Counted from the stretch's first letter, positions 1-16,786 are shown. The stretch: 16,786 nt of DNA from Candidatus Auribacterota bacterium (GCA_023136205.1 JAGLRQ010000039.1:1-16786), one strand, 5' to 3'. Numbers and translations are program-made. The notes: a model not told the origin generated them from the sequence alone.

Positions 1-474
1 GCCGGGCTTATAGGAAATGTTGTTGCCATGTTAACGGTTATGAAAGGCCTCCCGATGACATATAACCGTGACATGCAGGAGGATAAAAAACTTCTTTTTG
101 ATTCTGTCGATACGGTTACTCAAATGCTTGAAATTACGGCAGAATTTGTAAATGGCATAACTTTAAATAAAAAGGTTATAAATAATTTGGTAAATAAAGA
201 TTTGGGGCTTTTTGCGACAGATATTGCGGAATATCTGGTTAAGAAAGGCCTTCCATTCAGGGATGCTCATCATGTGGTGGGCGAAATAATGGCCTCAAAC
301 ATTGCGAAGAAAAAACCGGAGGAGGTTAATTTAAAGGCTCTTAAGGTTTTTTCGAGTAAATTCAGCTCCGATGTTATTAAAATTTTAAATGCTGAAAATT
401 CTGTTAAGTTGAAGAAATCTTCAGGGAGCCCTGCTCCGTCTAAAGTAAAAGAAGAACTGAAGAAGTGGATTTAA
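1..474 (+). CDS. argH: argininosuccinate lyase, C-terminal fragment (5' end outside window)
   Basis: Frame 1 is open from base 1 (AGLIGNVVAMLTVMKGLPMTYNRDMQEDK...). The KGLP-x-x-YN-x-D-x-QEDK block is typical of the C-terminal half of argininosuccinate lyase. Stop codon TAA at 472-474. Confidence 0.85.
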   Translation, partial: AGLIGNVVAMLTVMKGLPMTYNRDMQEDKKLLFDSVDTVTQMLEITAEFVNGITLNKKVINNLVNKDLGLFATDIAEYLVKKGLPFRDAHHVVGEIMASNIAKKKPEEVNLKALKVFSSKFSSDVIKILNAENSVKLKKSSGSPAPSKVKEELKKWI

Positions 475-519
475 AAAGCGGCGAATCGTGAATCGTATAT
501 AGTCAATAAAGGACACAAG

Positions 520-2573: not shown

Positions 2574-2656
2574 AGACCGTATACTAAATACTACATAGTG
2601 CGGAACGCAGTGTAGCCTCCCCAGAGGGGACTACATACTAAAACACGGAGGTACAT

Positions 2657-3523
2657 ATGTTTGCAGGTTCTCTTGTAGCAATTGTTACCCCATTTAAAGA
2701 TGGGGAGGTGGATGAAGATTGTTTGAGAAGCCTGGTTCGAATGCATATCGAAGAAGGCACATCGGGTATAGTTCCCTGTGGGACAACCGGTGAATCTCCA
2801 ACACTCAACCCCGAAGAGCATAAAAAGGTTATTGAAATAGTTATAGATGAGGTAAAGAAGAAAGTGCCGGTAATCGCCGGAACAGGATCAAATAATACGG
2901 CAGAGGCAATAGAATATACCAGACATGCTTATGAAGCCGGTGCTGATGGCGCGCTTGTGATTACCCCTTACTATAACAAACCCACGCAGGAAGGATTATA
3001 CAGCCACTTCAAAGCAATTGCCGGAGAAGTTTCTATTCCGATAGTAATTTATAATGTTCCCGGCAGAACTGGAATTTCCATTGAGCCTGAAACCGTAGCG
3101 AGATTGTCGGAATTGAGCAATATAGTGGCGATAAAAGAAGCCAGTGGTAAAATGGATCAGGTTACTAAAATAATATCTCTGTGTGGAATAACTGTATTAT
3201 CCGGTGATGATTCAATGACAATGCCCATAATGGCTGTTGGCGGAACCGGTGTAATTTCTGTTGTGGCTAATATAGTTCCTTCTGATGTACGTGCTTTAAC
3301 GGCGGCAATGGAAGAAGGTAATTGTGAACGTGCTAGGGAGCTGCATTATAAGCTTTTTAACCTGTGTAAAGTTATGTTTATTGAGACAAATCCGATTCCG
3401 ATTAAAACAGCAATGGCTATGAAGGGGTTGATTAAAGAGGAATTCAGACTGCCGTTGGTAAGCCCTTCCGAAAAATCCAGGGCTATAATAAAAGCTCAGA
3501 TTGAAGAATACGGAATACTTTAA
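2657..3523 (+). CDS. dapA: 4-hydroxy-tetrahydrodipicolinate synthase
   Basis: GGAGG Shine-Dalgarno at 2647-2651. Motifs GTTGESPTL, YNVPGRTG and the Schiff-base lysine context AIKEASG. Confidence 0.95.
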   Translation: MFAGSLVAIVTPFKDGEVDEDCLRSLVRMHIEEGTSGIVPCGTTGESPTLNPEEHKKVIEIVIDEVKKKVPVIAGTGSNNTAEAIEYTRHAYEAGADGALVITPYYNKPTQEGLYSHFKAIAGEVSIPIVIYNVPGRTGISIEPETVARLSELSNIVAIKEASGKMDQVTKIISLCGITVLSGDDSMTMPIMAVGGTGVISVVANIVPSDVRALTAAMEEGNCERARELHYKLFNLCKVMFIETNPIPIKTAMAMKGLIKEEFRLPLVSPSEKSRAIIKAQIEEYGIL

Positions 3524-3546
3524 AGTAGTAAATGGGAGTGGATTAT

Positions 3547-4353
3547 ATGATCAATATAGCTGTAAGCGGAGCCGCGGGAAGAATGGGAAAAAGAATCATA
3601 AATGTAATTCTTTCCCATACAGAAACGAAACTTGTTGGAGCCTGTGAAGCAAAAGGCCATGGCATGGTTGGCAGGGATGCGGGGGAAGTCGCGGGAGCTG
3701 GGCCCGCGGAAATAAAAATTGTGGATTCAATTAGTGAGATTTTGGAAAATGCCGATGTTCTCATAGATTTTTCCGCGAAAGAAGCTTCAATGAACAATAT
3801 TCAGGAGGCCTCCGAAAATAAGGTAGCTGTTGTAGTCGGGACAACCGGCCTTGCCGATGATGATCTTGAAAAACTTTCAATTTATGCTAAGGTAATTCCT
3901 CTTCTTATATCTTCAAATATGAGTGTTGGTATAAATCTTCTGCTCCAGTTTGTTGGAAAAGTAGGAGTTTTGCTCGGAAAGGAATATGATATCGAAATAA
4001 TAGAAACACATCATAAATTCAAAAAAGATGCGCCTTCAGGAACAGCCAAATCTCTTGCTGATACGATTAAAGATTCTTTAAGGGAAGAAAGTAATAGAAA
4101 AACCAATTTTGTTTATGGCCGGGAAGGAATGGTTGGTGAAAAACCTGAAAATGAAATTGGGGTTCACGCCGTTAGAACAGGTGATGTGATAGGAGAGCAT
4201 ACGGTGGTTTACTCAGGCGCCGGTGAAAGAATAGAGATTACTCATAAAGCGCACACAAGGGACACTTTTGCCAGAGGAGCTGTTCGGGCAGCCATATGGA
4301 TTAAGGATAAACCGGCAGGAGCTTATACGATGAAAGATGTACTTTTTGGCTGA
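3547..4353 (+). CDS. dapB: 4-hydroxy-tetrahydrodipicolinate reductase
   Basis: GAAGRMG dinucleotide-binding motif and EIIETHHKFKKDAPSGTA signature. I prefer the ATG at 3547 (MINIAVSGAAGRMG, GGGAG about 8 nt upstream) over the ORF-track start at 3532. Confidence 0.92.
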   Translation: MINIAVSGAAGRMGKRIINVILSHTETKLVGACEAKGHGMVGRDAGEVAGAGPAEIKIVDSISEILENADVLIDFSAKEASMNNIQEASENKVAVVVGTTGLADDDLEKLSIYAKVIPLLISSNMSVGINLLLQFVGKVGVLLGKEYDIEIIETHHKFKKDAPSGTAKSLADTIKDSLREESNRKTNFVYGREGMVGEKPENEIGVHAVRTGDVIGEHTVVYSGAGERIEITHKAHTRDTFARGAVRAAIWIKDKPAGAYTMKDVLFG

Positions 4354-4374
4354 TTACTAAGTAAGGAGAATAAA

Positions 4375-5547
4375 ATGCCGATAGAAATAAAATTATCAGA
4401 AAGATTGAAAAAACTGCCGCCATATTTATTCGCGGAAATAGATAAGACGAAAAGGAGCCTGCAGAGTGAAGGAAAAGATGTAATTGATCTTGGCGTCGGA
4501 GATCCGGACATGCCGACCCCCGGGCACATAATTGAAAAACTTTATAAGGCAGTTCAGGATCCCCAAAACCATAAGTATGCTCTTGACGCGGGGATGCCTG
4601 AGTTCCGTGAAGCTATCGCGGCCTGGTATAAAAAAAGGTTTAATGTAAAGCTCGATCCCCAAAAAGAAATTTTGCCTTTAATCGGTTCAAAAGAAGGAAT
4701 TGCCCATATTCCTCTTGCTCTTATAAATCCGGGGGATGTGGTTCTTATCCCGGAACCGGGATACCCCGTTTATTATTCCGCGACAGTGTTTGCCGGCGGC
4801 GACCCTTATTTTATGCCTCTTCTTGAAAAAAATAATTACCTTCCTGATCTTCATGCTATTGATTCCCAGGAACTCGCGAAAGCGAAAATGATGTATCTCA
4901 ATTATCCTAATAATCCGACTTCCGCGACGTGCGATTTAGGCTTTTTTAAAAAGGTGGTGCAATTTGCCGAGAATAATAACATTATGGTTTGCCATGATGC
5001 CGCTTATACGGAGATTTTTTTTGATGGAAAAAAACAGCCAAGTTTTCTCCAGGCGGATAAAGCCAAAAGTGTAGGCATTGAATTTCATTCCCTTTCAAAG
5101 ACATTTTGTATGACTGGCTGGCGGGTCGGTTTTGCTGTGGGGAATGCTGATATGATTACCGGGCTTTCCAAAGTGAAAGCCAATATTGATTCTGGTATAT
5201 TTCAGGCTATTCAGATTGCCGGTATAGAAGCTCTTGAAATGGGAGAAGCAGACACGAAGAGATTTAACAGGATATACCAGGAAAGGCGGGATATTTTTGC
5301 CGAAGGTTTGAATAAAATGGGGTGGAGTGTAAAAAAGCCTGAAGCTGCTTTCTATATATGGCTTAGGGTTCCGCCTGGTTATACGTCGTCAGAACTTGTA
5401 ATGCTTCTGCTAAAAAAATGTAATATAGTTTGCACTCCCGGAAACGGATTTGGCGAAGATGGAGAAGGTTATGTGAGGTTTGCTCTTACAAAAGATAAGG
5501 AACAAATAATTAAAGCTCTTGAGAGAATAGAGAAGTTGCATGAGTAG
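4375..5547 (+). CDS. dapL: LL-diaminopimelate aminotransferase (DapL-type class I aminotransferase)
   Basis: 390 aa with N-terminal LPPYLFAEID...DLGVGDPD and the PLP-lysine motif SLSKTFCMTGWRVG. Lies between dapB and the rest of the cluster, and no dapD/dapE is present in the block. Family membership is clear; the DapL specificity is inferred from context. Confidence 0.78.
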   Translation: MPIEIKLSERLKKLPPYLFAEIDKTKRSLQSEGKDVIDLGVGDPDMPTPGHIIEKLYKAVQDPQNHKYALDAGMPEFREAIAAWYKKRFNVKLDPQKEILPLIGSKEGIAHIPLALINPGDVVLIPEPGYPVYYSATVFAGGDPYFMPLLEKNNYLPDLHAIDSQELAKAKMMYLNYPNNPTSATCDLGFFKKVVQFAENNNIMVCHDAAYTEIFFDGKKQPSFLQADKAKSVGIEFHSLSKTFCMTGWRVGFAVGNADMITGLSKVKANIDSGIFQAIQIAGIEALEMGEADTKRFNRIYQERRDIFAEGLNKMGWSVKKPEAAFYIWLRVPPGYTSSELVMLLLKKCNIVCTPGNGFGEDGEGYVRFALTKDKEQIIKALERIEKLHE

Positions 5548-6031
5548 TGAAGTTTATATCGGGATAGGCTCAAATTTAGGCAGCAGATTTGAAAATATTG
5601 ATAGTGCGGTAAGTTTTTTAAAGAAAGAAAGAGGAATAGAATCAGTTTTTCAAGCATCTTTTTATGAATCGGCCCCTGTTGATATTTCTTCTAAGAATTT
5701 TTTTTTAAACACTGCTGTAAAAATTAAGACTGAGTTGAGCCCCTTTGAGCTCCTTGAAAGACTAAAACATATTGAAAAAGTTCTTGGGAGGAAGCAAACA
5801 AAATCCGGAGACAGGATTATAGACCTGGATATACTTCTTTATAAAGATGAAGTTGTAGATGGCCCGGTTTTAAAAATACCTCATCCGAAGTTTCATGAAA
5901 GGCTTTTTGTATTGGTTCCGTTAACGGAAATAAGCGGTGATATTAAACACCCTTTGCGTGGAGAAAAGCTTAGTTGTTTTATCGAAAGTTTAAAAGATTC
6001 AAAGCAATTTGTTAAGAGAGTGGAGCGATGA
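5540..6031 (+). CDS. folK: 2-amino-4-hydroxy-6-hydroxymethyldihydropteridine diphosphokinase (HPPK)
   Basis: Motifs IGIGSNLG, RIIDLDILLY and IPHPKFHERLFVLVPL. Overlaps the dapL stop. Confidence 0.9.
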   Translation: MSSEVYIGIGSNLGSRFENIDSAVSFLKKERGIESVFQASFYESAPVDISSKNFFLNTAVKIKTELSPFELLERLKHIEKVLGRKQTKSGDRIIDLDILLYKDEVVDGPVLKIPHPKFHERLFVLVPLTEISGDIKHPLRGEKLSCFIESLKDSKQFVKRVER

Positions 6032-6828
6032 AAGATAAATTAACCCCGGAAAACATAAAAAAACTTAAACACGGCAAAAGAAAGATTGTCGCGATAACCG
6101 CCTATGACTGGGCTACCGCGGCCCTTAGTGAAGAAGCTTCCCCTGAAATTGTGCTTGTAGGTGATTCTTTGTCAATGGTTGCCCTGGGATATGAGAATAC
6201 ACTGCCTGTAACAATGGATGAGATGATACATCACACAAAGGCGGTCGTCCGCGCCGGCCTCAAGTCTCTTATTGTCGCGGATATGCCTTTCATGTCATGT
6301 GGTGTTTCTGTTGAAGATACCGTATTTAACGCGGGCAAATTTATTAAAAAAGCCGGGGCCGGAGCCGTAAAAATTGAATGGAGAAAGAACATAGTTTCTA
6401 CCGTCAGAGAACTTGTCGGCCACGGCATTCCTGTTATGGGGCATATCGGGCTTACACCCCAGGATATTCTGGTTATGGGCGGTTACAAAGTTCAGGGCAA
6501 AACGCCTGAAAAGGTAGAAAAACTTCTGGATAACGCGAAAGAATTAGAAGATGCCGGGGTTTTTTCTATTGTTGTGGAATGTGTCCCAACCTCCGTAGGA
6601 AAAAAGATTACCGAATCGGTTAATGTCCCTACTATAGGTATAGGCGCGGGGCCTTACTGTGACGGACAGATAATGGTGTTCAGCGATATAGCAGGGCTTT
6701 ATGACAAGAAAAAACCTAAATTTGTAAAGGTATATGCTGAAGCCGGAAAATTGATAAGAAACGCGTTAGCGTCATACGCGCGGGAGGTTCGGGAAGGCAA
6801 ATTTCCTGATGAGGAACATTCATATTGA
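6028..6828 (+). CDS. panB: 3-methyl-2-oxobutanoate hydroxymethyltransferase
   Basis: ITAYDWATA and VGDSLSMVALGYENTLPVTMDEMIHHTKAV are typical of PanB. 4-nt ATGA overlap with folK. Confidence 0.93.
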   Translation: MKDKLTPENIKKLKHGKRKIVAITAYDWATAALSEEASPEIVLVGDSLSMVALGYENTLPVTMDEMIHHTKAVVRAGLKSLIVADMPFMSCGVSVEDTVFNAGKFIKKAGAGAVKIEWRKNIVSTVRELVGHGIPVMGHIGLTPQDILVMGGYKVQGKTPEKVEKLLDNAKELEDAGVFSIVVECVPTSVGKKITESVNVPTIGIGAGPYCDGQIMVFSDIAGLYDKKKPKFVKVYAEAGKLIRNALASYAREVREGKFPDEEHSY

Positions 6829-6834
6829 AATTTC

Positions 6835-6860
6835 GTATTGAGTATTGAGTATTGTGTATT
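6835..6860. repeat. short tandem heptamer repeat (GTATTGA x about 3.7)
   Basis: GTATTGA GTATTGA GTATTGT GTATT lies directly after the panB stop, followed by ACGCAC-A-ACGCAC at about 6865-6877. Confidence 0.6.
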
Positions 6861-6960
6861 TTTTACGCACAACGCACGACAAAATATGCAACTATAGAAT
6901 GCAATATTCCTATGTTTACCATATGAAAAGGGGTGCAGGGTTGTTGGATAGGGTAAAAGT

Positions 6961-7812
6961 GTGCGTATAATAAAAAAAATTGATGTGATGAGGAAATTTT
7001 CTCTGGCCGAGAAGAAGAAAGGCAGGACAATAGGATTTGTTCCGACCATGGGCTTTCTTCATGCCGGTCATTTAAGCCTTATAAAGAAGGCCGGGAAGAG
7101 AAATGATATTGTAGTAGTAAGTATTTTTGTTAATCCCGCGCAGTTTTTGCCGAACGAAGATTTTAGCGCGTATCCAAAAGACTTTAGAAAGGACGCTTTA
7201 ATCTGCCGGGAGGAAAGCGTTGATGTTCTTTTTTACCCCGGAAGAAAAGATATCTATCCGGCAGGGTTTTCGACTTATGTGGAAGAAACTTCCCTTAGCA
7301 AAAGCCTTTGCGGCGGGTCGCGCCCTGGACATTTTAAGGGGGTAACCACTGTAGTCGCGAAACTGTTTAATATTGTTGTACCGAACACGGTGTATTTTGG
7401 ACAGAAAGATGCCCAGCAGTCATATATAATAAAGAGAATGGTTTCAGATCTTAATATGCCTGTGGAAATAAAGGTTGCGCCGATTGTGAGGGAGCCTGAC
7501 GGCCTTGCATTAAGTTCGAGAAATAAATATCTTACGAAAGGCCAGAGAGCGAAGGCCTGTTTTATATATAAAGCGCTTAAAATTGCGGAAAAGAGGGTTA
7601 AAAAGGGTGAAAGAAGTTCTGCTAAAATTAAGGCGGCTATAAGACACGTTATAGAAGCAAATCTCCGAGGGGAGATAGATTATATTGATATAGTGGATAC
7701 AGAAAACCTGAAACCATTGAAAAAGCTCAAACGTAAAGTTCTTATGGCTGTTGCGGTAAATGTAGGAAAAGCAAGGCTGATTGATAATATTATACTAAAA
7801 CCAGGCAGGTAG
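6961..7812 (+). CDS. panC: pantoate--beta-alanine ligase
   Basis: GTG start. Motifs GFVPTMGFLHAGHLSL and FGQKDAQQ. Confidence 0.93.
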   Translation: MRIIKKIDVMRKFSLAEKKKGRTIGFVPTMGFLHAGHLSLIKKAGKRNDIVVVSIFVNPAQFLPNEDFSAYPKDFRKDALICREESVDVLFYPGRKDIYPAGFSTYVEETSLSKSLCGGSRPGHFKGVTTVVAKLFNIVVPNTVYFGQKDAQQSYIIKRMVSDLNMPVEIKVAPIVREPDGLALSSRNKYLTKGQRAKACFIYKALKIAEKRVKKGERSSAKIKAAIRHVIEANLRGEIDYIDIVDTENLKPLKKLKRKVLMAVAVNVGKARLIDNIILKPGR

Positions 7813-7829
7813 TAAGGAGGTAGTGAATT

Positions 7830-8183
7830 ATGCATAGAATGATGTGTAAATCTAAAATACACAGGGTTACTGTTACAGAGAAAGCTTTATCTTATGAAGG
7901 AAGCATAACAATTGATCCGGAACTTATGGAAGCCGCCAATCTTATAGTATATGAAGTTGTAAAAGTTGCGAACCTTAATAATGGAGCAAGATTTCAGACA
8001 TATGTTATCGAGGGAAAAAGGGGTTCAGGAGAGATTGTCCTTAACGGGGCGGCTTCCCGTCTTGGAGAAACAGGAGACCAGCTTATTATAATGTGCTTCT
8101 GTTCGGTTCCTGAAGAAGATGTGAAAAATTTTAAGCCTGCGTTTATAAAAGTTGATGGTAAAAATAAGATCCTTCAAGGATAG
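7830..8183 (+). CDS. panD: aspartate 1-decarboxylase proenzyme
   Basis: KSKIHRVTVTE...LSYEGSITID carries the Gly-Ser self-processing site. AAGGAGG lies upstream. Confidence 0.93.
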   Translation: MHRMMCKSKIHRVTVTEKALSYEGSITIDPELMEAANLIVYEVVKVANLNNGARFQTYVIEGKRGSGEIVLNGAASRLGETGDQLIIMCFCSVPEEDVKNFKPAFIKVDGKNKILQG

Positions 8184-8185
8184 TT

Positions 8186-9775
8186 ATGAATCCCCGGTAT
8201 CTTGTAAATTTCAAGCTTTCTGAATTATCCAGGATAAAAACAGATGTTGTCGTGGTAGGTTCAGGTTCTGCCGGTTTGGTCGCGTCTTTAGAAGCGGCCA
8301 GGTATGGGAAAGTTATCATTGTTACCAAGTCCGGGGTTGAGGAAAGCAATACTTACCATGCGCAGGGAGGAATAGCTGTATCCCTTTCTAAGAATGATAC
8401 CTGGAAGAAGCATTTTGAAGACACCATCTTTGCGGGCGCGGGGTTATGCAATAAAACCGCGGTTAAAATCCTGGTGCGGGAGGGTGTGGAGAGAGTAAGG
8501 GAAATAATGGCTCTTGGAGCGAAATTTGATAAGGATAAAGAAGGTCTCCTGTTTGGGAGAGAAGGTGCTCACAGCGAAAACAGAATAATTCACGCGAATG
8601 GTGACAATACAGGTGAAGAAATAGAGAAAACACTGATTCGAGCCGTTAAGAAAAATCCTAACATAAGAATCCTTGAGAAACATTTTGTTATTGATTTATT
8701 GCATTATAAATCAAGATGTTATGGGGTTATTGTTTTTGATAATCGTTCAGGCAGACAATTTGCGGTTGTTGCTTCTTCAACAATTGTCGCGACAGGAGGC
8801 GCGGGGCAGATTTACAGGGAGACAACAAATCCTGAGATTGCTACTGCCGATGGAATGGCTTTCGCTTTCAGAGCGGGGGCTGCATTAATGGATATGGAGT
8901 TTATGCAGTTTCATCCGACAACATTATATCTTGCCGGAGCTCCTAGATTTCTGATTTCGGAGGCCGTGAGGGGTGAAGGAGGTATTCTGGTTGACAAGAG
9001 AAACAAGCATTTTATGAAGGGGTACCATTACCTTAAAGATTTGGCTCCGCGCGATATTGTAAGCAGGGCAATCGTAGAGCAGATGAAAAAAACCAGGTCT
9101 AACTGTGTTTATCTGGATCTTTCAAAAATGTCTGCCGCAAAGGTTTCAAGAAGGTTCCCGAGTATAAAAAAGATTTGTAAGGAGTATGGGATTAATATAC
9201 CAAAAGATAAAATACCTGTGAGGCCCAGCGCTCATTATATGATGGGTGGGATTAAAACTGATATCAACGGCTGTACAAATATTGACGGGCTTTTTGCGTG
9301 CGGGGAAGTATCATGCTCCGGTGTTCAGGGAGCAAACAGGCTGGCAAGCAATTCTTTACTTGAGTCACTTGTTTTTGGCGCGAGAGCTGGAAAAACTGCC
9401 GCTTTGCATTCAAATAAAAACAAAAAACCCGTTCCCGATATAAAATATTATAAGGAACGGAAGTTATTTAATGCTCTGGATGTGGATGATGTTAAAAGAT
9501 CTCTGCAGAGTGTTATGTGGATGTGTATAGGCCTTGAGAGGAATAAAGAAACCCTTGAAGAAGCTTTAAATATTATAAGTTTCTGGGAGAAGTATACCCT
9601 TTCAGCCTGTGTTAAATATGTAGATGGTTTTGAGCTTCAGGATATGCTTATGATAGCCAGGATTATGATCTCAGCGGCAATTAAGAGAAAAGAAAGCCGG
9701 GGAGCTCATTTTCGCACTGACTTTCCCAAACAAAGTGATAAATGGAAGAGGCATATTACTTTTAGGTTGAAATAA
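8186..9775 (+). CDS. nadB: L-aspartate oxidase
   Basis: FAD-binding motif DVVVVGSGSAGL, plus RPSAHYMMGGI and GLFACGEV...GANRLASNSLLE. Confidence 0.93.
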   Translation: MNPRYLVNFKLSELSRIKTDVVVVGSGSAGLVASLEAARYGKVIIVTKSGVEESNTYHAQGGIAVSLSKNDTWKKHFEDTIFAGAGLCNKTAVKILVREGVERVREIMALGAKFDKDKEGLLFGREGAHSENRIIHANGDNTGEEIEKTLIRAVKKNPNIRILEKHFVIDLLHYKSRCYGVIVFDNRSGRQFAVVASSTIVATGGAGQIYRETTNPEIATADGMAFAFRAGAALMDMEFMQFHPTTLYLAGAPRFLISEAVRGEGGILVDKRNKHFMKGYHYLKDLAPRDIVSRAIVEQMKKTRSNCVYLDLSKMSAAKVSRRFPSIKKICKEYGINIPKDKIPVRPSAHYMMGGIKTDINGCTNIDGLFACGEVSCSGVQGANRLASNSLLESLVFGARAGKTAALHSNKNKKPVPDIKYYKERKLFNALDVDDVKRSLQSVMWMCIGLERNKETLEEALNIISFWEKYTLSACVKYVDGFELQDMLMIARIMISAAIKRKESRGAHFRTDFPKQSDKWKRHITFRLK

Positions 9776-9798
9776 AATTCTATTTCCGTTCTCCGCGT

Positions 9799-10104
9799 CT
9801 AGTTAGATTTTTCCTTATTTAATTGCCAAAGCGAAGGATTGGTTTCTCTGCCAATATTATTAACTGTTGGTTCTGCGGAAGACAATTCAGTAATCTCCAA
9901 TTCTATTTCATTGCGTTTTAATACCCGGCCAAAATTAGCGTTGAATGACTTAGATGGCGGAGTGTTAGTGTTGTTGAAATATCCCCCCTGGTATTTTTGA
10001 AGCACCTCAGTTGTTGATACTTTGGTCAATCCTTCATTCCTAAAATCACCCAAAATTGTTTTGACTTTTTCAAGATTTACCAATATTATCTCGCTCATAG
10101 GCAC
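9799..10104 (-). CDS. hypothetical 101-aa protein (no recognisable domain)
   Basis: Open frame with a GTG start at 10104 preceded by GGGAGG (5 nt spacer). An in-frame ATG at 10098 is an alternative start. Convergent with nadB, with only 23 nt between the two stops. No motif I can name. Confidence 0.5.
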   Translation of the reverse strand: MPMSEIILVNLEKVKTILGDFRNEGLTKVSTTEVLQKYQGGYFNNTNTPPSKSFNANFGRVLKRNEIELEITELSSAEPTVNNIGRETNPSLWQLNKEKSN

Positions 10105-10260
10105 TTTTTCCTCCCGGTAACTCCACGGTTAATTAGGAACACTTCCACTTTTTTAAATCATACTATAATTATAATATTTCTCCTAATTTTTTATCTATTT
10201 TTTTTGTCCAATTTATTACAGTATCTAATATCTCGTGAATTGTAGGGGGTTAGAGCATGT

Positions 10261-11409
10261 TTATGGGGTGGAATCAAGAGGGATGAAAGGACGGCCGTCA
10301 CCAATTGTTTTTCTATTTACATAAAACATTTTTCCTAATTCAGTGTTGGTGAAATCAGTTATGTTTTTCCCATTAGCTTTCAGATATGCTTTAATCAGAA
10401 GAACGAACTTGGTGCTTTGGCCTTGGGCAGAAAGGAATGATGGTTCAAAAAACCCGCGTTTAAGAGAAAAAGTTTCACCTGAAATATCAATCAATTTTAT
10501 CTTTGCCGCCCGGGCATATTTAAATTGGACATCTATAAGTCCGTATCTACTTTTAAGCTTTCTTAAAGACTTTATCACTTGTCTGCGCAAAGCTGAAGCA
10601 TCCCAGTCTTGAGGGAAGTTTAATTGGCCCGCGAGCTTTTCAAGAGAAATATAGAATTCTTTTGATTTTCGGCGTTGGGACTCTGCTATGAGTAATAGAT
10701 AAAGATCCATCGCCCGGTTATCTCGTTTACTGAGCATTCCGGGAAAATAACGTTTGTTGTTCATCAGCGCCCCTGGCAGTTCAATCAGTTCAGGAAGCGG
10801 ATATATTTTCTTCAGGCTAATCTGCGCGGGCCCCCTTAAATCTTCTCCCTGAAGATGAATGGTTTTCATCCGCCGAAGGCGCTCTTTTGCCAGTACCGGG
10901 GAATCTATGAGAACTGATGATTCAAGGTTGCGAGTTAAAGCGCTTACGCTCCAGTTGGTACTGCCGATAACGACATAGCGGTTGTCAACTATAATCATCT
11001 TGTCATGAAGCATATATCGTGGATTAGCCAGGCAGATTCGACCGCCTTTTTGGCGCAATGTATCAAATATCTCTCCTTTGCCAACTTCGGTGAGATAACG
11101 GCTGCTCTTGTCTATTTTTGTGTTAAGGTATATATCAACACTCACGCCTCTTTCTAAGGCCTCTTCCAGGTCTTTCATCAAACGGTTGATGGTATGCCTG
11201 GCATCTGTGCCCGGTTTCATTATGAACATTGAGATTGTAATGGAGTCCCGGGCGTTATCTAAAAGATGTATAACAGCTTTTTCATAGGCTTGGTCGGATA
11301 TGTCCTTTATCCTCGCGGGATAGAGGCCTTCATCAGCCGCCTTCAGCGGAGCTGAAATAAGGCATAGCAGAAATAGGAAAAGAATGGTAAAGATTGTTTT
11401 TTTGCTCAT
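10261..11409 (-). CDS. exported single-HKD phospholipase D / Nuc-like nuclease-family protein with a C-terminal helix-rich (wHTH-like) extension
   Basis: N-terminus MSKKTIFTILFLFLLCLISAPLKA|ADEG looks like a signal peptide. One HxK(x4)D(x6)GSxN motif, HDKMIIVDNRYVVIGSTNW, at residues 135-153. About 200 extra C-terminal residues (RAMDLYLLLIAESQ...SLRKLKSRYGLIDV). Confidence 0.8.
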   Translation of the reverse strand: MSKKTIFTILFLFLLCLISAPLKAADEGLYPARIKDISDQAYEKAVIHLLDNARDSITISMFIMKPGTDARHTINRLMKDLEEALERGVSVDIYLNTKIDKSSRYLTEVGKGEIFDTLRQKGGRICLANPRYMLHDKMIIVDNRYVVIGSTNWSVSALTRNLESSVLIDSPVLAKERLRRMKTIHLQGEDLRGPAQISLKKIYPLPELIELPGALMNNKRYFPGMLSKRDNRAMDLYLLLIAESQRRKSKEFYISLEKLAGQLNFPQDWDASALRRQVIKSLRKLKSRYGLIDVQFKYARAAKIKLIDISGETFSLKRGFFEPSFLSAQGQSTKFVLLIKAYLKANGKNITDFTNTELGKMFYVNRKTIGDGRPFIPLDSTP

Positions 11410-11453
11410 AGTTAGACGCGGATGTACACTGATTTAAAATACAGATTCACACG

Positions 11454-11517
11454 GATAAAGAAAGAGTGGATACCATTAAAATCATCTTGATTTAACAGCA
11501 AAACCACTCTTTTTATC
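11454..11517. other. imperfect inverted repeat (16/14 nt arms, 34-nt loop): possible degenerate terminal attC or a terminator
   Basis: GATAAAGAAAGAGTGG (11454-11469) faces CCACTCTTTTTATC (11504-11517). A core-like GTTATAT lies at 11534-11540 and GTTAGAC at 11411-11417, but the two cores are direct rather than inverted. Confidence 0.3.
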
Positions 11518-11550
11518 ATTTTTTCATACCTTTGTTATATGCTTTTTCTG

Positions 11551-11820
11551 TCATTCGTAATGTGTCCACATTCGAATTACTTTCACAGCTCTACTTTTCT
11601 TGAGAACCTGATAGACCAACCTATGGTGAATATTAATACGTCGAGAGTATGCTCTTGTTATATCTCCGACTAATTTTTCAAAAGATGGAGGTTGTTGAAA
11701 AGGGTCTTTTTCAAGAATTTCCAGAAGTTTTTCCGCTTTTGAACGTAATCCCGACGCCGCAATCTTTTTAGCATCTTTTTGGGCTTGGTTTGTATAAACT
11801 AATTGCCATTTCTTCACCAC
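11551..11820 (-). CDS. yoeB: YoeB/Txe-family mRNA interferase toxin
   Basis: 89 aa ending ...YSRRINIHHRLVYQV...VIRMWTHYE, typical of YoeB. The GTG start overlaps the yefM stop (GTGGTGA). Confidence 0.9.
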   Translation of the reverse strand: MVKKWQLVYTNQAQKDAKKIAASGLRSKAEKLLEILEKDPFQQPPSFEKLVGDITRAYSRRINIHHRLVYQVLKKSRAVKVIRMWTHYE

Positions 11821-12056
11821 TTCAAATCCTTACTGCATTTTTTCACAGGAGTTTTAAGCCCTTCACGTATGGATTTCCTCATTCCGGGGATAGATAGAAG
11901 ATAAAGAGTTTCTTTCACTGCTGCCCAGTCATCTGCCGAAACGAGAATAGCATTTGTCCTCTTTCCGGTAATTTGGATTGGTTCATGAGAAGAAGCAGTT
12001 TCATCCAATAGTTTGTATAGTTGTGTTCTTGCTTCAGTTGCCGTTAATGTTTTCAT
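11814..12056 (-). CDS. yefM: Phd/YefM-family antitoxin
   Basis: MKTLTATEARTQLYKLLDE...PIQITGKR..AILVS..DW..VKETLYLL. I prefer the ATG at 12056 (GAGGTG 6 nt upstream) over the track's GTG at 12065. Confidence 0.9.
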   Translation of the reverse strand: MKTLTATEARTQLYKLLDETASSHEPIQITGKRTNAILVSADDWAAVKETLYLLSIPGMRKSIREGLKTPVKKCSKDLKW

Positions 12057-12074
12057 AATAATCACCTCAAATAT

Positions 12075-12103
12075 ACTGTACGCTATTACGTACGGATTGT
12101 CAA
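12075..12103 (-). promoter_or_regulatory. yefM-yoeB promoter with paired GTAC operator cores
   Basis: Minus strand reads TTGACA (12103-12098), a 17-nt spacer, then TACAGT (12080-12075). GTAC cores at 12078-12081 and 12090-12093 are 12 bp centre to centre and overlap the spacer and the -10. Confidence 0.55.
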
Positions 12104-12132
12104 GGATTAAATTTCCCCATTATCTCTTCATA

Positions 12133-12236
12133 TAATAACGATAAAAATCAGTGGTGTTGCGCACACGTGGAAATCAAAAAAACTTGTTTTTTTGCGCCGA
12201 CGCTTATACAACATCCACTGGATTGTTTGGTTATAA
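12133..12236 (-). repeat. integron attC site, family A (104 bp)
   Basis: Plus strand reads TAATAAC...GTTATAA. Arms are AACgataaaaatCAGTGG-TGTTG and CAACA-t-CCACTGgattgtttgGTT. The spacer next to the cores is mismatched and T12214 is unpaired. About 85-90% identical by eye to the copies at 15198 and 15891. Confidence 0.85.
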
Positions 12237-12245
12237 GTTTGCCTA

Positions 12246-12476
12246 CTATTTTGCGATGGCTTCTCCTAACCGTTCCGCAACCCAAACTTTGATAATAGAC
12301 TGACGAGGAACCCCGAGGCGTTTGGCTTCTTTATCAAGCGAATGAACCATCCAAATAGGAAAATCGACATTTATTCTCTTTTGTTCCTGCTCCGGCCTTC
12401 TGGCTTTTGAGAGATCTAAATACTTCTTAATGTTTTTCCCTTCATTAAATTTTTTATCAAATTCTTTAGCTTTCAT
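12246..12476 (-). CDS. brnA: BrnA-type ribbon-helix-helix antitoxin
   Basis: 76 aa. The C-terminal half (INVDFPIWMVHSLDKEAKRLGVPRQSIIKVWVAERL) is RHH/BrnA-like. Overlaps brnT by 11 nt. Confidence 0.85.
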   Translation of the reverse strand: MKAKEFDKKFNEGKNIKKYLDLSKARRPEQEQKRINVDFPIWMVHSLDKEAKRLGVPRQSIIKVWVAERLGEAIAK

Positions 12477-12726
12477 ACATTTCCACCTCCTCTGGCCTAG
12501 AACGACGCACAGAGATAATTCTTAATTTTTCGTTACGATAAACAATAATTCCCGACCAACATTTTTCCTCAATCTTGCCAACAACCAAAAATCTTGGTTC
12601 ATCTACCGTCTTGGCAGGAATTTCAATTAAATCAGGATCATCCCATAATTTTTGGGCTTCAACAAAGCAAATCCCATGCTTTTTTTTATTGCGTTCACTT
12701 TTGTTTTTATCAAACTCAAAGTTCAT
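12466..12726 (-). CDS. brnT: BrnT-family (DUF497) ribonuclease toxin
   Basis: F-x-D-x-x-K-x-x-x-N-x-x-KHG-x-x-F-x-EA...RIISVRR, the typical BrnT pattern. The toxin-first gene order is typical of brnTA. Confidence 0.88.
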   Translation of the reverse strand: MNFEFDKNKSERNKKKHGICFVEAQKLWDDPDLIEIPAKTVDEPRFLVVGKIEEKCWSGIIVYRNEKLRIISVRRSRPEEVEMYES

Positions 12727-12735
12727 GATATAAAT

Positions 12736-12763
12736 AGTATACCATGTAGGTATAAATATGCAA
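12736..12763 (-). promoter_or_regulatory. candidate brnTA promoter with an overlapping inverted repeat
   Basis: Minus strand reads TTGCAT (12763-12758), a 16-nt spacer, then TATACT (12741-12736). Inverted repeat TATACC-n5-GGTATA at 12738-12754. Only about 9 nt separate the -10 from the ATG, and there is no Shine-Dalgarno. Confidence 0.4.
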
Positions 12764-12786
12764 CCTTTAAATAATGTGTATTTTAC

Positions 12787-12978
12787 TTATAACGTTAAAA
12801 ATCAGTGGTGTTGTGCATACGCAGAAATCAAAAATTTCTAATTTTTGCGCAAGCGCCTATTCAACAGCTTGCCCGCCCCGAGGAATTCGTAGAATTCCCG
12901 GGACTAAAGTCCTTGGAATCTTTCAGATTCCTGAGGGCCTATGCTTTGTGGCGGGTCCACTGAAGCGGGTTGTTAGAA
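12787..12978 (-). repeat. integron attC site, family A, interrupted by an 89-bp insertion (192 bp total)
   Basis: The left arm TTATAACgttaaaaatCAGTGGTGTTG is intact. The right arm is split: ...TATTCAACA | 89 bp | TCCACTGaagcgggttGTTAGAA. Confidence 0.8.
12867..12955. other. 89-bp self-complementary structured insertion inside an attC (unknown element or ncRNA)
   Basis: Closing stem CCCGCC (12872-12877) / GGCGGG (12950-12955). It encloses three hairpins: GGAATTC-gta-GAATTCC (12882-12898), GGAC-taaa-GTCC (12901-12912) and GGAATC-tttca-GATTCC (12915-12931). The other three family-A copies lack this segment. Confidence 0.7.
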
Positions 12979-12999
12979 ATTATTTCTTTTGCAATTTCT

Positions 13000-13656
13000 T
13001 TAACATGTTTGTTCTTCTTGTGTTGTTTTATCTGCTAACTTGAAACCCGCCATGCAGAAAACCACAAAACCCAGATATATTAGACCAAAGCTCATTGCAC
13101 TACCCCATAAAAGATATTTAAAGGAATAAAAATCCTTCAAAATATGCAGAGCAAAATATGGGAAAAATAACAACTTGATAACTACTGTGCTAAAGGCTAA
13201 TAACATCACCGGTATACTGTTTTGAAGGTTTTTAAATAAATAATTTAAACCAGCTTGAATAGTGGGCAGTCCTTTTCCGGTTAGATAAATAAGCGGGAAA
13301 ATATAAATAGATAAAACTACAATAATAGCCTGTAAGGAGAAATTAACTATCATATTCGGAATAAGATTGAAGAGACGTCCAAGGAAAAGAGGTAAAAACA
13401 AGATAAAACATACCACGATATAGTTTATCCAATTACGATTAAATATGTTTTTTGCAAGATCTTTCGGTGCCCCAGTTATTTGCTCAATAAAACGCCCATA
13501 TATAACTATTGAGATTGGAAATGTTACAATCAATTTCAACAATAAAAACAGAATACCTCCATCTTTTAGATTAATCGCTGAAATTATTGCTAACAGGAAT
13601 ACATAGAATGTTTTCTGATTTACAAGTTGAATTGATAACGAAAAATATTTTTTCAT
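13000..13656 (-). CDS. hypothetical integral membrane protein (about 6 TM segments)
   Basis: 218 aa, strongly hydrophobic and periodic. The ATG lies 11 nt downstream of the attC core at 13667-13673, and the stop is 22 nt before the next attC. Confidence 0.7.
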   Translation of the reverse strand: MKKYFSLSIQLVNQKTFYVFLLAIISAINLKDGGILFLLLKLIVTFPISIVIYGRFIEQITGAPKDLAKNIFNRNWINYIVVCFILFLPLFLGRLFNLIPNMIVNFSLQAIIVVLSIYIFPLIYLTGKGLPTIQAGLNYLFKNLQNSIPVMLLAFSTVVIKLLFFPYFALHILKDFYSFKYLLWGSAMSFGLIYLGFVVFCMAGFKLADKTTQEEQTC

Positions 13657-13666
13657 TTTCTACACT

Positions 13667-13753
13667 TTCTAACGCAAAAATCAGCGACGAGCCGTTAGGG
13701 TAGTATACGCGCGCCAGCGCGGATACCGCGTTCACGGCATTGCCTGGTTAGGA
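13667..13753 (-). repeat. integron attC site, atypical (87 bp; family-C-like stop-proximal arm, family-A-like distal arm)
   Basis: Plus strand reads TTCTAAC...GTTAGGA. Central stem GTATACGCGC-gcca-GCGCGGATAC shares the GCCAGCGCG core with the site at 16284. The left arm AACGcaAAAAATCAGcGacG resembles family A. The arms pair asymmetrically, leaving an unpaired bulge of about 13 nt. Confidence 0.65.
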
Positions 13754-14125
13754 GTTCTTATTGATTGCGTCATCGCTACCTGGACGTATAGTTTGACATT
13801 TCCAACATTTGGTAAATTGGTCTTCGATATCCTCTCCGCAACTTGGGCAAGTCCATAAATCCGCTTGCGATTTTTCCTGCGGGGAATCTGATCCTTTTGA
13901 TGACATTTCCATAACTATAGCCTTGGCTCTGCTCACATTAGACTCGGCAACAGCGATCTTAACAGCACCAACACCGCCAGGAGAGGCTATGTGCGGAGCC
14001 CATCTTCCCAAGCTCTCATCTTTCAAATATGATTTGATCCCATTAGTTTCGAGTACATTTTTAATTAAGTCAACCTCAGTGATATTCCCAGTCGTAATAG
14101 TTACAATTTTTTGATCTTGATCCAT
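13748..14125 (-). CDS. DUF2007-like (putative signal-transducing, PII-like) domain protein with a C-terminal CxxC...CxxC zinc ribbon
   Basis: The N-terminal ITEVDLIKNVLETNGIKSYLKDE...VKIAVAESNVSRAKAIV pattern resembles DUF2007. The C-terminus reads WTCPSCGEDIEDQFTKCWKCQ. I prefer the second ATG (14125), 7 nt after the AGGAG contributed by the attC core GTTAGGAG. The TAA stop lies inside the core TCCTAAC. Confidence 0.72.
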   Translation of the reverse strand: MDQDQKIVTITTGNITEVDLIKNVLETNGIKSYLKDESLGRWAPHIASPGGVGAVKIAVAESNVSRAKAIVMEMSSKGSDSPQEKSQADLWTCPSCGEDIEDQFTKCWKCQTIRPGSDDAINKNS

Positions 14126-14133
14126 TATCATAC

Positions 14134-14232
14134 TCCTAACGTCTTGTGTAACCAGCGTGGCGCATGCGGAGAATCAAACTATGTTTGTCACCAGAGCCGA
14201 AATTCCACGCCTGGTTAACGCTATTGTTAGGT
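14134..14232 (-). repeat. integron attC site, family B (99 bp)
   Basis: Plus strand reads TCCTAAC gtcttgtg TAACCAGCGTGG ... CCACGCcTGGTTA acgctatt GTTAGGT. One C (14210/14211) is unpaired. The left 27 nt match the partial site at 16759 at 24 of 27 positions. Confidence 0.85.
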
Positions 14233-14275
14233 ATTTTTATTCTACACCCTTTGACTTTTAGCCTAAAGGGAGTGA

Positions 14276-14782
14276 TTAGAATTTTCCTTTCTGTCTCTTA
14301 AAATCTCTCAAACCTCGCACTGATGCAACATCATTTAAGACAGTATCTTGCCACCCTGATTTGACATCTTCCCTTGAATCGAACCTTTGTATGTATGGTT
14401 TGATGTCAAGTAAAGGTGTGCCATCCAATATATCAAGATCTCTGACATAAAGAATATTATCTTCAATTCTATCCAATCGCACAAGACTCATCCCTAATTT
14501 ATTGGGACGGTGTGGAGCGCGTGTAGCAAAAATACCATGTTCATAGTCTGACAGATATGGCTTTAAACGTAAACACGTTTTCTGTGAATGATCGAAATAA
14601 TAGAACAAATAGATATGAGAAAATCCTTGCAAATCTTTCAATCCGTCAGCATATTTATTATTCAATATAATTGTACCTTCAATGTCATTACAAAAAACAG
14701 GTTGTATCGGGATTTTGGAAATTTCTTTATGCGGAGAATGGATAATTCCTATCGATTGGAATACAAATTTGTTATCTTTCAT
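14276..14782 (-). CDS. TsaA/TrmO-family (UPF0066) putative tRNA methyltransferase
   Basis: GFSHIYLFYYF, TRAPHRPNKLGMSLVRL and LDILDGTPLLDIKPYI are hallmark blocks of the YaeB/TsaA/TrmO fold. Confidence 0.87.
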   Translation of the reverse strand: MKDNKFVFQSIGIIHSPHKEISKIPIQPVFCNDIEGTIILNNKYADGLKDLQGFSHIYLFYYFDHSQKTCLRLKPYLSDYEHGIFATRAPHRPNKLGMSLVRLDRIEDNILYVRDLDILDGTPLLDIKPYIQRFDSREDVKSGWQDTVLNDVASVRGLRDFKRQKGKF

Positions 14783-14821
14783 GAAATACTCTCTTATTAA
14801 TTTTTCTATACATTTATTTTG

Positions 14822-15178
14822 TTAGAAAGTAAGTATTTTTTCGCAATCGACTACCCATTCGGCTAATTCTGGCATTGTAGCTTTCTGAGCACCTTCAAAA
14901 TAAGGCTGATTTTTGTGAATTCCACAACGCACCATACATGTTCCACACACTTTGACTGATACGCCCTTGGCAATTAAATCTTTTAACATTTGAGATAAAT
15001 CTTGATCGTATCCTTCTGGTGGATTACACACTTCACGTGCCATATCAACAGAATCATTCATCAAAAATATTTTTACTTCTTGCTCTGTCTCCAGCAATTT
15101 TCCCGCAAGACGTAATCCATTCCATGTGACATCCGTGTTATCATAAGGTTGACGATTGAAGATAATTAGTATTTTCAT
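14822..15178 (-). CDS. DsrE/DsrF/YchN-like small sulfur-relay-fold protein
   Basis: 118 aa: MKILIIFN.QPYD....NGLRLA......V.IFLM.D.V....., with a conserved Cys region VKVCGTCMVRCGI. AAGGGGA Shine-Dalgarno. The TAA stop lies inside an orphan TTCTAAC core (14821-14827). Confidence 0.78.
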   Translation of the reverse strand: MKILIIFNRQPYDNTDVTWNGLRLAGKLLETEQEVKIFLMNDSVDMAREVCNPPEGYDQDLSQMLKDLIAKGVSVKVCGTCMVRCGIHKNQPYFEGAQKATMPELAEWVVDCEKILTF

Positions 15179-15197
15179 TATTTCCCCTTTTATTTAT

Positions 15198-15300
15198 AGC
15201 TAACGTTAAAAATCAGTGGTGTTGCACACACGAGAAAATCAAAAAATATTATTTTTTGCGCCAACGCTTATTCAACATCCACTGAATTGTCTTGTTCGAT
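15198..15300 (-). repeat. integron attC site, family A (103 bp)
   Basis: Plus strand reads AGCTAACgttaaaaatCAGTGGTGTTG...CAACA-t-CCACTGaattgtcttGTTCGAT, with T15278 unpaired. The upstream cassette ORF ends 30 nt inside this site (stop at 15268-15270). Confidence 0.85.
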
Positions 15301-15879
15301 GTTGTATTTGCTATTTATTGTTTTTAACCCTTTTGGTATTGTCGATATCTCTTCCCCTGGCAAATTGAGGAAGATGCCTGTTAGAGCACATTGAAAATCA
15401 TAATTTGACCTATGCACCGATATCCAAGGTTTTCGAGGGAGCTCTTTTCCCATTGCATCAGTAAAATAGTAGTACCATATACTGGTATCCTTACCAACCC
15501 TGTAGCCATAAAATTTCAAAAAGATTGTTTTGTTTTTAAACACTTCCAAATCTGGGCCAAACTCTCGTAGAAATGCTATGAGCGATTTGCCAAGAGTTTC
15601 ATTTTTTTCTACGTGACCAATTTCCTCAATCATTTTTTCCGTAAATCCTTGTTTGCAAAGAAATATTGAATATTGTGCTATATGATGAGGATTCTTTTTG
15701 TGTGGGTTTTCAAGACCGTCAACTTTCAAAACCTTGCCAAAGCAGAAAAAATCTGAATCCGGTAGAATTTCTTCTGCCATAAGGAAGATGGGTGACAAAA
15801 GAAAAAGAATTAAGAACGCAAAAGCTACAACTCCTATGCCATTACATAGAACCTTTCGACATTTAGCTTTAATTTTCAC
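15268..15879 (-). CDS. hypothetical exported or membrane-anchored protein (about 203 aa), unknown function
   Basis: This is the in-frame portion of the 324-aa track ORF that lies downstream of attC 15891-15994. The GTG at 15879 gives a signal/anchor-like N-terminus (KIKAKCRK-VLCNGIGVVAFAFLILFLLSPIFLMA-EE). An alternative ATG lies at 15780. The start is uncertain. Confidence 0.55.
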   Translation of the reverse strand: MKIKAKCRKVLCNGIGVVAFAFLILFLLSPIFLMAEEILPDSDFFCFGKVLKVDGLENPHKKNPHHIAQYSIFLCKQGFTEKMIEEIGHVEKNETLGKSLIAFLREFGPDLEVFKNKTIFLKFYGYRVGKDTSIWYYYFTDAMGKELPRKPWISVHRSNYDFQCALTGIFLNLPGEEISTIPKGLKTINSKYNIEQDNSVDVE

Positions 15880-15890
15880 TGTATTTTCCC

Positions 15891-15994
15891 ATCGAACGTT
15901 AAAAATCAGTGGTGTTGCGGACACGTAGAAATCAAAAAAACTTGTTTTTTTGCGCAGGCGCCTATTCAACATCCACTGGATTGCATTGTTATAT
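15891..15994 (-). repeat. integron attC site, family A (104 bp)
   Basis: Plus strand reads ATCGAACgttaaaaatCAGTGGTGTTG...CAACA-t-CCACTGgattgcattGTTATAT, with T15972 unpaired. It lies inside the 324-aa track ORF. Confidence 0.85.
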
Positions 15995-16059
15995 TTCCAG
16001 TTAATAGTTCGAAGCCAATCTGCCGATATTATAACACAAAAAGCTGAGGTATGAGTAAA

Positions 16060-16088
16060 ATTATAGCACCGGATTATACGCTGGACAA
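16060..16088 (-). promoter_or_regulatory. candidate sigma70-type promoter inside the ORF-less cassette, firing toward attC 15891-15994 and the next cassette
   Basis: Minus strand reads TTGTCC (16088-16083), a 17-nt spacer ending in TGC, then TATAAT (16065-16060), giving an extended -10 TGCTATAAT. A second TGTTATAAT is at 16028-16036 and a further TATAAT at 16071-16076. Confidence 0.4.
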
Positions 16089-16098
16089 AGTTAATCCG

Positions 16099-16199
16099 AA
16101 TGTTTTTCAACATTGCCGATAGTCCCAGATTCCGTACCAAGTACGGAATGACAAGGATAAGAAACATTTTTAAAAATGTCTTTCCTGCGAAGGCAGGAA
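16099..16199. repeat. cluster of four short palindromes/hairpins (REP-like) in the ORF-less cassette
   Basis: AATGTT-tttc-AACATT (16099-16114). ATTCCGTAC-caa-GTACGGAAT (16129-16149). A perfect 16-bp palindrome ACATTTTTAAAAATGT (16164-16179). TTCCTGC-gaag-GCAGGAA (16182-16199). The last translates to the IPAFAGK-type peptide often seen when palindromic repeats are mis-called as ORFs. Confidence 0.6.
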
Positions 16200-16283
16200 T
16201 CCAGGAGACAATTAGATATTTATAACCGGAACAAATTTTCAAAAAGGGAAGAATACTTCACTAAAGTCTTATTGGTTTTTAAA

Positions 16284-16377
16284 ATATAACGGTTGAACTA
16301 AGCCGCGTGTATACTACAACATAATCGCGAAGCGCCGCCAGCGCGTGTTCCACGTCGGCTTCAGTGATTTGTTAGGC
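16284..16377 (-). repeat. integron attC site, family C (94 bp)
   Basis: Plus strand reads ATATAAC ggttgaact AAGCCGCGTG ... CACGtCGGCTT cagtgattt GTTAGGC, with T16355 unpaired. The TAA stop of ORF 16372-16749 lies within the GCCTAAC core. Confidence 0.85.
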
Positions 16378-16749
16378 TGTCCCGCCTTTCTTAAATTTTA
16401 AAAAAACGTATAGAGTCAAGTAAGAAAGATATATAAAAAACATTTCTCCAAAAAATGACAGTATTGTAAATATTTGAGTCTCTGGATCTTTTAGAACATA
16501 ATTATATCCTGCATCTATAGTATAATATACTGAACGACTTACTGTAGTTATAATAATCAAAAACAATGGTATGGTATGTTTCAAAATCAACTTTTGTCTT
16601 ATAGAAATAAATGAGGCAAGACAACCTAAGATAAGAGGATAAAATATTATGGTTAGTATGGCATCAGGAATTGACCTGCCAGATTGCCAATGAAAACCAG
16701 AAATAATGCTAAAAAGTAATGTTATGGTTATTAAAATTTTTCGACGCAT
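16372..16749 (-). CDS. hypothetical small membrane protein (about 4 TM segments)
   Basis: 125 aa, hydrophobic throughout. The ATG is 10 nt downstream of the attC core at 16759-16765, and the stop lies inside the next attC core. Confidence 0.65.
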   Translation of the reverse strand: MRRKILITITLLFSIISGFHWQSGRSIPDAILTIIFYPLILGCLASFISIRQKLILKHTIPLFLIIITTVSRSVYYTIDAGYNYVLKDPETQIFTILSFFGEMFFIYLSYLTLYVFLKFKKGGTA

Positions 16750-16758
16750 TTTTTTAGT

Positions 16759-16786
16759 CGCCTAACGTCCTGCGTAACCAGCGTGG
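16759..16786 (-). repeat. integron attC site, family B, partial (cut by the window edge)
   Basis: GCCTAACGTCCTGCGTAACCAGCGTGG matches 14134-14160 at 24 of 27 positions. Confidence 0.75.

Follow-up and report, generated by a model that had tools for sequence, protein, structure and literature searches.

The DNA analysed here, called the window below, is a stretch of 16,786 nt from Candidatus Auribacterota bacterium (GCA_023136205.1, JAGLRQ010000039.1:1-16786). Its segment from 12133 to 16786 very probably holds the distal end, the one far from the integrase, of an array of integron gene cassettes. The chromosome that carries it is that of an uncultured bacterium, probably a member of Candidatus Auribacterota. 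The unit of the array is a cassette, mostly a single gene, at times a pair or no gene at all, with an attC recombination site behind it. From 11551 on, all credible open reading frames (ORFs) up to the window's right edge are encoded on the minus strand; the cassette ORFs sit between the attC sites. A first-pass annotation had noticed eight imperfect palindromes in this region and read them as attC; the predicted sites, with their scores under the covariance model R1 described below, are as follows.

12133-12236, minus strand: attC, last of the array, family A (27.2 bits, E 5.7e-5), with the crossover point between 12138 and 12139
12787-12978, minus strand: attC, family A with an insertion (A2), 192 nt (14.7 bits, E 0.076; DNA fold z -4.3)
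13667-13753, minus strand: attC, singleton, 87 nt, R'-proximal arm like family A (20.8 bits, E 0.0022)
14134-14232, minus strand: attC, family B (18.9 bits, E 0.0069)
15198-15300, minus strand: attC, family A (20.9 bits, E 0.0021)
15891-15994, minus strand: attC, family A (27.9 bits, E 3.8e-5)
16284-16377, minus strand: attC, family C, 94 nt (46.9 bits, E 6.7e-10)
16760-16786, minus strand: attC, family B, cut by the edge, with the R' core GTTAGGC at 16766-16760

Because Rfam has no match in the window, at either gathering or E-value thresholds, we built an attC model of our own. R1 was trained on 16 class 1 integron attC sites only and includes no window sequence. A tblastn search with IntI1 found class 1 integrons in PLSDB plasmids; 16 of these regions were taken, and 16 different attC were cut from twelve of them (arr-3, aacA4, aac(6')-29a, VIM-2, aadB, aadA2, dfrA5, gcuD, aadA5, dfrA12, estX, psp, cmlA1, dfrA1, aadA1 and dfrA27). 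The structure imposed is the textbook one, a 7-bp R''/R' helix and a 3+6-bp L''/L' helix with one bulge on the 5' arm. Run on the window without filters, this class 1-trained model gives seven matches, all on the minus strand, of 46.9 to 14.7 bits (E 6.7e-10 to 0.076). They are the seven complete palindromes of the first-pass annotation, all seven at its exact coordinates and at E <= 0.076. The eighth, cut by the edge, is complete in contig L001 (915-1013, 30.8 bits) and in contig L102 (46-144), and over 26 nt it shares 92% identity with the beginning of the site at 14135. A repeat search places family A at 12136, 12790, 15201 and 15894 and family B at 14135 and 16761.

The next-best R1 matches in the window, 18 and 27 nt long (E 2.7 and 5.4), are noise. 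R1 has no match in window positions 1-11400, and on 21 kb of further chromosome from the same organism it finds no attC, only the same two noise matches. With default filters it has no match at E <= 10 in 1.27 Mb of unrelated sequence, made up of 80 loci around nadB from diverse bacteria. The annotation had named two outcomes as contrary to its reading, an attC model that found nothing, and repeats scattered genome-wide outside any array together with no integrase near the locus; what was found is seven matches, and none in 32 kb of chromosome on the flank.

The bottom strand of an integron attC folds into an imperfect hairpin in which R'' pairs with R' and L'' with L', and extrahelical bases mark the strand. 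We aligned 15 distinct sites, from the window and from the overlapping contigs that extend it, to R1. Over these sites 92.8% of pair cells form standard pairs, as against 21-41% when partners are slid by one to three columns, and ten of the 16 pairs show double-sided changes. The covariation score is 0.525 compared with 0.167 for shuffled alignments, none of 500 shuffles reaching as high. AAC and GTT are invariant in all 15. The L''/L' helix has 97.8% of its cells paired and seven of its nine pairs changed on both sides, in an alignment that was fitted to R1. The R helix is 86% paired, and its outer core bases are often off the R/Y consensus (TTATAAC, for example), which is frequent outside mobile integrons.

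Two extra bases, 6 bp apart, lie in the top-strand 5' arm of families A (except the insertion-bearing A2), B and C and of three singletons, and an arm-versus-arm alignment gives the same two-base pattern and 6-bp spacing in the attC of aadA1 and VIM-2. The annotation had described a single unpaired base in the right-hand arm wherever the arms could be aligned. Its bases are indeed unpaired where folded (T12214 in the DNA fold, and the equivalent T in folds of 15195-15304 and 15888-15998), but there are two extra bases per site, of which it had seen the inner one. The R''-L''...L'-R' architecture that it proposed agrees with the R1 matches, the covariation, the two extrahelical bases and the complementarity of junctions that we turn to now; on these four lines of sequence evidence, the palindromes at 12133-16786 are attC.

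The integron integrase IntI, a tyrosine recombinase, cleaves the bottom-strand AAC between C and AA, which on the top strand is between the G and the TT of R'. Since the crossover falls there, it is the following cassette that supplies the six bases behind this G, and they are predicted to be complementary to the R'' of that cassette. When the variable bases of each R' are compared with the reverse complement of the next downstream site's R'', 27 of 28 agree in the window and six of the seven junctions are perfect, the best match of all orderings (p = 2e-4). In the extended array the agreement is 49 of 56 (p < 1e-5), compared with 38 of 56 for a site's own R'' and 31 of 56 for the R'' of the previous site. 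We interpret this complementarity as the footprint of crossover between G and TT, as independent insertion of circular cassettes predicts, and it is the strongest evidence for the attC reading. Because R' matches the R'' of the next site, the rule also fixes polarity independently. The annotation had taken the minus strand as the cassette top strand, and this is what we find: all R1 matches are on that strand, and each R' fits the next R'' in that direction. The plus strand is then the bottom strand, which by analogy with characterised integrons would fold and be cut by IntI, and the cassettes may still be mobilisable. The junction rule is a cheap check that needs no integrase and can be reused in other scans.

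Copies of family A are 83-87% alike, and the attC families overall 84-90%. The annotation had also regarded family A as native and the other families as foreign, which the longer array does not support: besides singletons, it holds four sites of family A, three of B and three of C, so the types are about equally common and no feature singles out A as the native one. A search for the exact family A pattern gave no match in 185,579 GTDB species genomes or in JGI metagenomes, and so neither relatives nor an integrase were found by that route. The A2 site at 12787 carries an insertion at 12866-12956, just inside the second extrahelical base. This insertion is about 90 nt long and self-complementary, ends in CCCGCC...GGCGGG, contains two internal hairpins and is single-copy among all loci compared. 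We considered whether it forms one repeat family with the hairpins of the ORF-less cassette described below and rejected this, as the alignment score was within the shuffled range.

The array was followed rightward by exact-protein look-up, the 125-aa protein at the window's edge leading to contig L001 and a 126-aa protein (P0007) leading from there to contig L116 (9076 nt). Together L001 and L116 add about 9.6 kb, with nine further co-oriented cassette genes besides the 126-aa gene in L001; L116 reaches 8.6 kb beyond L001 on the right. R1 matches L116 at 648, 1896, 3919, 4575, 6288, 6868 and 8984, all in one orientation; the site at 8984 is the edge-cut site of the window, so that L116 adds six new ones. 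The best score in L116 is 49.5 bits, and the site at 1896-1955 is a 60-nt singleton. The annotation's view of the window as the distal end of an array is thus confirmed, the overlapping contigs continuing it for at least 9.6 kb to the right. A further candidate attC of about 190 nt lies at L001 318-535 (L116 about 8390-8590), with R'' ATCCAAC and R' GTTAGAT; it fits the junction rule and its ends pair, it is undetected by R1, and its fold z is -0.9.

PADLOC matches six of the ten L116 proteins, from five of about nine cassettes, to known or candidate antiphage families: PDC-S50 (Schlafen/AlbA_2), PDC-S15 (FRG), AbiV (a weak match), PDC-M02A and PDC-M02B in one cassette, and an NsnA/GmrSD-like protein with an HNH domain. 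The partial HNH protein has no exact match in the protein look-up. The four remaining proteins, of 187, 141, 132 and 126 aa, match nothing. A homologue of the 126-aa cassette protein, 77% identical, lies among four attC between housekeeping genes in another organism (L131 5022-6860), and no integrase is present on that 8.5-kb contig.

Two variants of the array coexist in sample ERZ23498485, represented by contigs L001 and L107, of which L107 matches the window. L001 is identical to the window through the DsrE gene, differs by about 5% in the TrmO gene and diverges completely right after it: when L001 3400-3741 is set against window 14134-14300, the place of the family B site and the DUF2007 cassette is taken in L001 by a 67-nt attC and a small cassette with a zinc ribbon. 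The genes of the window's cassettes, and the toxin-antitoxin pair beyond the last attC, are these.

11551-12065, minus strand: Phd/YefM antitoxin and YoeB/ParE-type toxin (Pfam), beyond the last attC
12246-12476, minus strand: CopG/BrnA-type antitoxin (Pfam CopG_antitoxin 7e-6, just below the Pfam cutoff)
12466-12726, minus strand: BrnT (Pfam BrnT 5e-23)
13000-13656, minus strand: 218-aa cassette ORF, hydrophobic by sequence, no family match
13748-14131, minus strand: 127-aa cassette ORF with DUF2007 and a zinc ribbon (domain search)
14276-14782, minus strand: TrmO/TsaA-like protein (Pfam TrmO_N 1e-39; TIGR00104 3e-38)
14822-15178, minus strand: DsrE/TusD-like protein (Pfam DsrE 4e-19)
15268-15879, minus strand: 203-aa cassette ORF with a GTG start and a hydrophobic N terminus, no credible family match, its end overlapping an attC by 33 nt
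15995-16283, minus strand: ORF-less cassette, 289 nt, with no ORF stopping before the next attC
16372-16749, minus strand: 125-aa cassette ORF, hydrophobic by sequence, no family match, its TAA stop inside the R'' core GCCTAAC

This content is typical of chromosomal integrons, a BrnT/BrnA toxin-antitoxin cassette (12246-12726, with attC on both sides) together with many genes without known function. PADLOC matched none of the window's cassette proteins, and Pfam, NCBIfam and PADLOC scans gave no resistance-family match for the cassette genes. The annotation had begun the array at 11411, and we move its left boundary to 12133 on account of the Phd/YoeB pair, beyond which there is no attC. In 11380-11620, after the pair, the best R1 match is 3.4 bits, a 51-nt relic-like AUAUAAC...GUUAAAU that is not significant, and the R' of the last attC, GTTATTA, has no matching R'' to its left. 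We therefore read the pair as old flanking DNA or as a cassette that has lost its site by decay, and it is not demonstrably a cassette.

The genes for the DsrE and TrmO proteins, 39 nt apart, make up one two-gene cassette (14276-15178), between whose genes R1 finds no attC. At the DsrE stop, 14822, lies an orphan TTCTAAC heptamer on the minus strand, which may be the remnant of a lost attC whose loss fused two cassettes. Three ORFs had been described as stopping inside attC cores; this holds for those at 13748 and 16372, whose cores are real, and not for that at 14822, where there is no attC. The ORF-less cassette has two strong hairpins, an RNA fold z of -1.7 and no Rfam match. It also contains a promoter-like sequence on the minus strand (16088-16060; TTGTCC-17-TATAAT with a TG), directed towards the next cassette; promoter and terminator scans gave no enrichment, including in this region for promoter-like sites.

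To the left of the array the window holds chromosomal genes.

1-11409, no strand: chromosomal flank, no attC
1-10104, plus strand: lysA, dapF, dapA, dapB, an aminotransferase gene, folK, panB, panC, panD and nadB
7830-8183, plus strand: panD ORF, named by the Asp_decarbox match of the same gene in contig L102
10261-11409, minus strand: phospholipase D (PLD)-like gene

The setting is thus chromosomal: the window has the lysA-dap-fol-pan-nadB genes, and beyond them on the left come ribosomal protein genes and arginine genes. The nadB of the window is 95% identical to that of one metagenome-assembled genome (MAG), 69% identical to that of a Candidatus Auribacterota MAG and 68% to that of UBP3 UBA6266. 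The PLD-like protein has a hydrophobic N terminus and a PLDc_2 domain that also matches the PADLOC DrmC models, and its C-terminal part of 200 aa has no match. Its gene is kept, at 65-68% identity, in relatives that have no array: in these JGI relatives there is no attC within 10 kb of the PLD gene, and no integrase, and ordinary genes lie there instead. Hence the integron at this locus is lineage-specific.

Several points weigh against our reading. No integrase, attI or cassette promoter Pc was seen in the window or within the 9.6 kb gained on its right, and the contigs stop short of the point where the array begins. The annotation had placed attI and intI to the right of the window, and while the array does continue there in the same polarity, no intI-type tyrosine recombinase lies in the added sequence; attI and intI would be expected further right still. 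All six contigs that carry the first L116 gene break 75-113 nt upstream of it, and for this reason the array is perhaps interrupted, or separated from its integrase; a repeated element at the break point may interrupt it. Two sites, of 192 and about 190 nt, are longer than attC usually are, and R1 misses the latter. Single-site minimum-free-energy folds have weak z-scores (-0.1 to -2.5, with -4.3 for the 192-nt site only), which are consequently not part of our main evidence. The covariation alignment, being fitted to R1, favours pairing, and the slid controls use the same alignment. The taxon assignment is based on a single marker, nadB. At the break itself, L116 1-77 and L123 1-112 read like the end of an ORF (...LRPLAWGRPKKKK and a stop), with no GTT core before the ATG.

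The alternative that survives best is a cluster of attC sites lacking an integron-integrase (CALIN), in which intI has been lost, or split from the sites by an insertion sequence or a rearrangement, and the cassettes are silent or moved only in trans. In IntegronFinder this class comprises at least two attC less than 4 kb apart with no intI nearby (PMC4889954), so that the window and L116 as they stand belong to it, although the class is an operational one only. The 15 kb of array without an intI speaks for it, as do the one point upstream of L116 at which every assembly breaks, as a repeated element would cause, and the relatives without attC near the PLD gene. CALINs are also common, about half of them in genomes without IntI, yet 83% have fewer than six sites (PMC4889954). 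The array here is much larger, with at least 15, and since contig ends cut the sequence its class may be an assembly artefact. Junctions that are complementary at 27 of 28 bases and AAC/GTT triplets intact in 15 of 15 sites argue against long decay, array variants coexist in one sample, and a lack in fragmented metagenome contigs says little about the genome. We consider this alternative possible, at odds well short of even.

It is far less probable that the palindromes are intergenic repeats of the repetitive extragenic palindromic (REP) or miniature inverted-repeat transposable element (MITE) kind, or transcription terminators, that merely resemble attC. Imperfect palindromes between co-oriented genes, with family A copies 83-87% alike, would fit such elements. 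A model of unrelated clinical attC, however, scores them at up to 46.9 bits (49.5 for a further site in L116) in the correct polarity, and the same structure, with compensatory changes, recurs in three families and several singletons of unrelated sequence. Such repeats leave the match of R' to the next R'' unexplained; the 32 kb of chromosome on the flank contains none, the family A motif has no match in the species genomes and metagenomes searched, and the terminator scan was without enrichment. Least probable of all is that another site-specific system, for example of the Xer/dif type, moves the modules, for although gene modules bounded by short recombination sites exist in non-integron systems, the sites here, uniform in orientation, are structured palindromes of 60-190 nt, unlike dif-like sites of 28 nt, and have AAC...GTT cores as well as strand-specific extra bases.

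The integron reading is therefore the one we compare with known systems. The element is of a well-known kind, the sedentary chromosomal integron type, in a new host, its integrase unseen. It resembles the Vibrio cholerae superintegron and the integrons of Xanthomonas and the Pseudomonas stutzeri group in its chromosomal location next to core genes, in its 15 or more co-oriented cassettes (as many sites within about 15 kb), in attC families that are 84-90% alike, and in a content of a toxin-antitoxin cassette, defence genes and mostly genes without an assigned function. Unlike those integrons, it belongs to a host in a candidate phylum of the Planctomycetes-Verrucomicrobia-Chlamydiae (PVC) group, and it has three attC types in about equal numbers, not one dominant species-specific type. 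Its integrase, attI and Pc are not in the sequence at hand, and the locus is not common to relatives at 65-68% identity.

A second likeness is to the attC of class 1 integrons of the aadA1, aadA2 and aadB type. Family C and the 60-nt singleton at L116 1896-1955 share with these the arrangement of boxes, the pair of extra bases spaced 6 bp apart and much of the arm sequence (CTAACAA.TC...AAGCCGAC / GCGGCTTA...GTTA). The arms of family C (for the 16284 site, in comparison with aadA1) and of the 60-nt singleton are about 80% identical to clinical aadA-type attC arms, and the sites at 16284-16377 and at L116 648-741, 1896-1955 and 6868-6962 have the top R1 scores, about 41-49.5 bits. In contrast to class 1 cassettes, the central regions are unrelated, no cassette gene matched a resistance family and the host is not a proteobacterium.

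The phylum Auribacterota belongs to the PVC group, and integrons are already known in another phylum of that group, the Planctomycetes. Defence cassettes in integrons are known as well, and such arrays yield new small defence genes (bioRxiv 10.1101/2024.07.02.601719; PMC12614218). Our literature search found no paper that pairs integrons with Auribacterota. It is a tentative and rather doubtful proposition that this is the first described Auribacterota integron, that its three equally common attC types, one of them aadA-like, imply cassette traffic between a PVC lineage and mobile integrons, and that its unannotated cassettes could include new antiphage or adaptive functions. Were it true, the set of interest would be the hydrophobic 218-, 203- and 125-aa proteins, the DUF2007-zinc ribbon protein and the ORF-less cassette, all in the window and adjoining the L116 stretch in which six of ten genes match known or candidate defence families. 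The array itself extends integrons to one more uncultured lineage and leaves the understanding of integrons unchanged; what the array offers is a compact set of uncharacterised cassettes beside recognisable defence cassettes.

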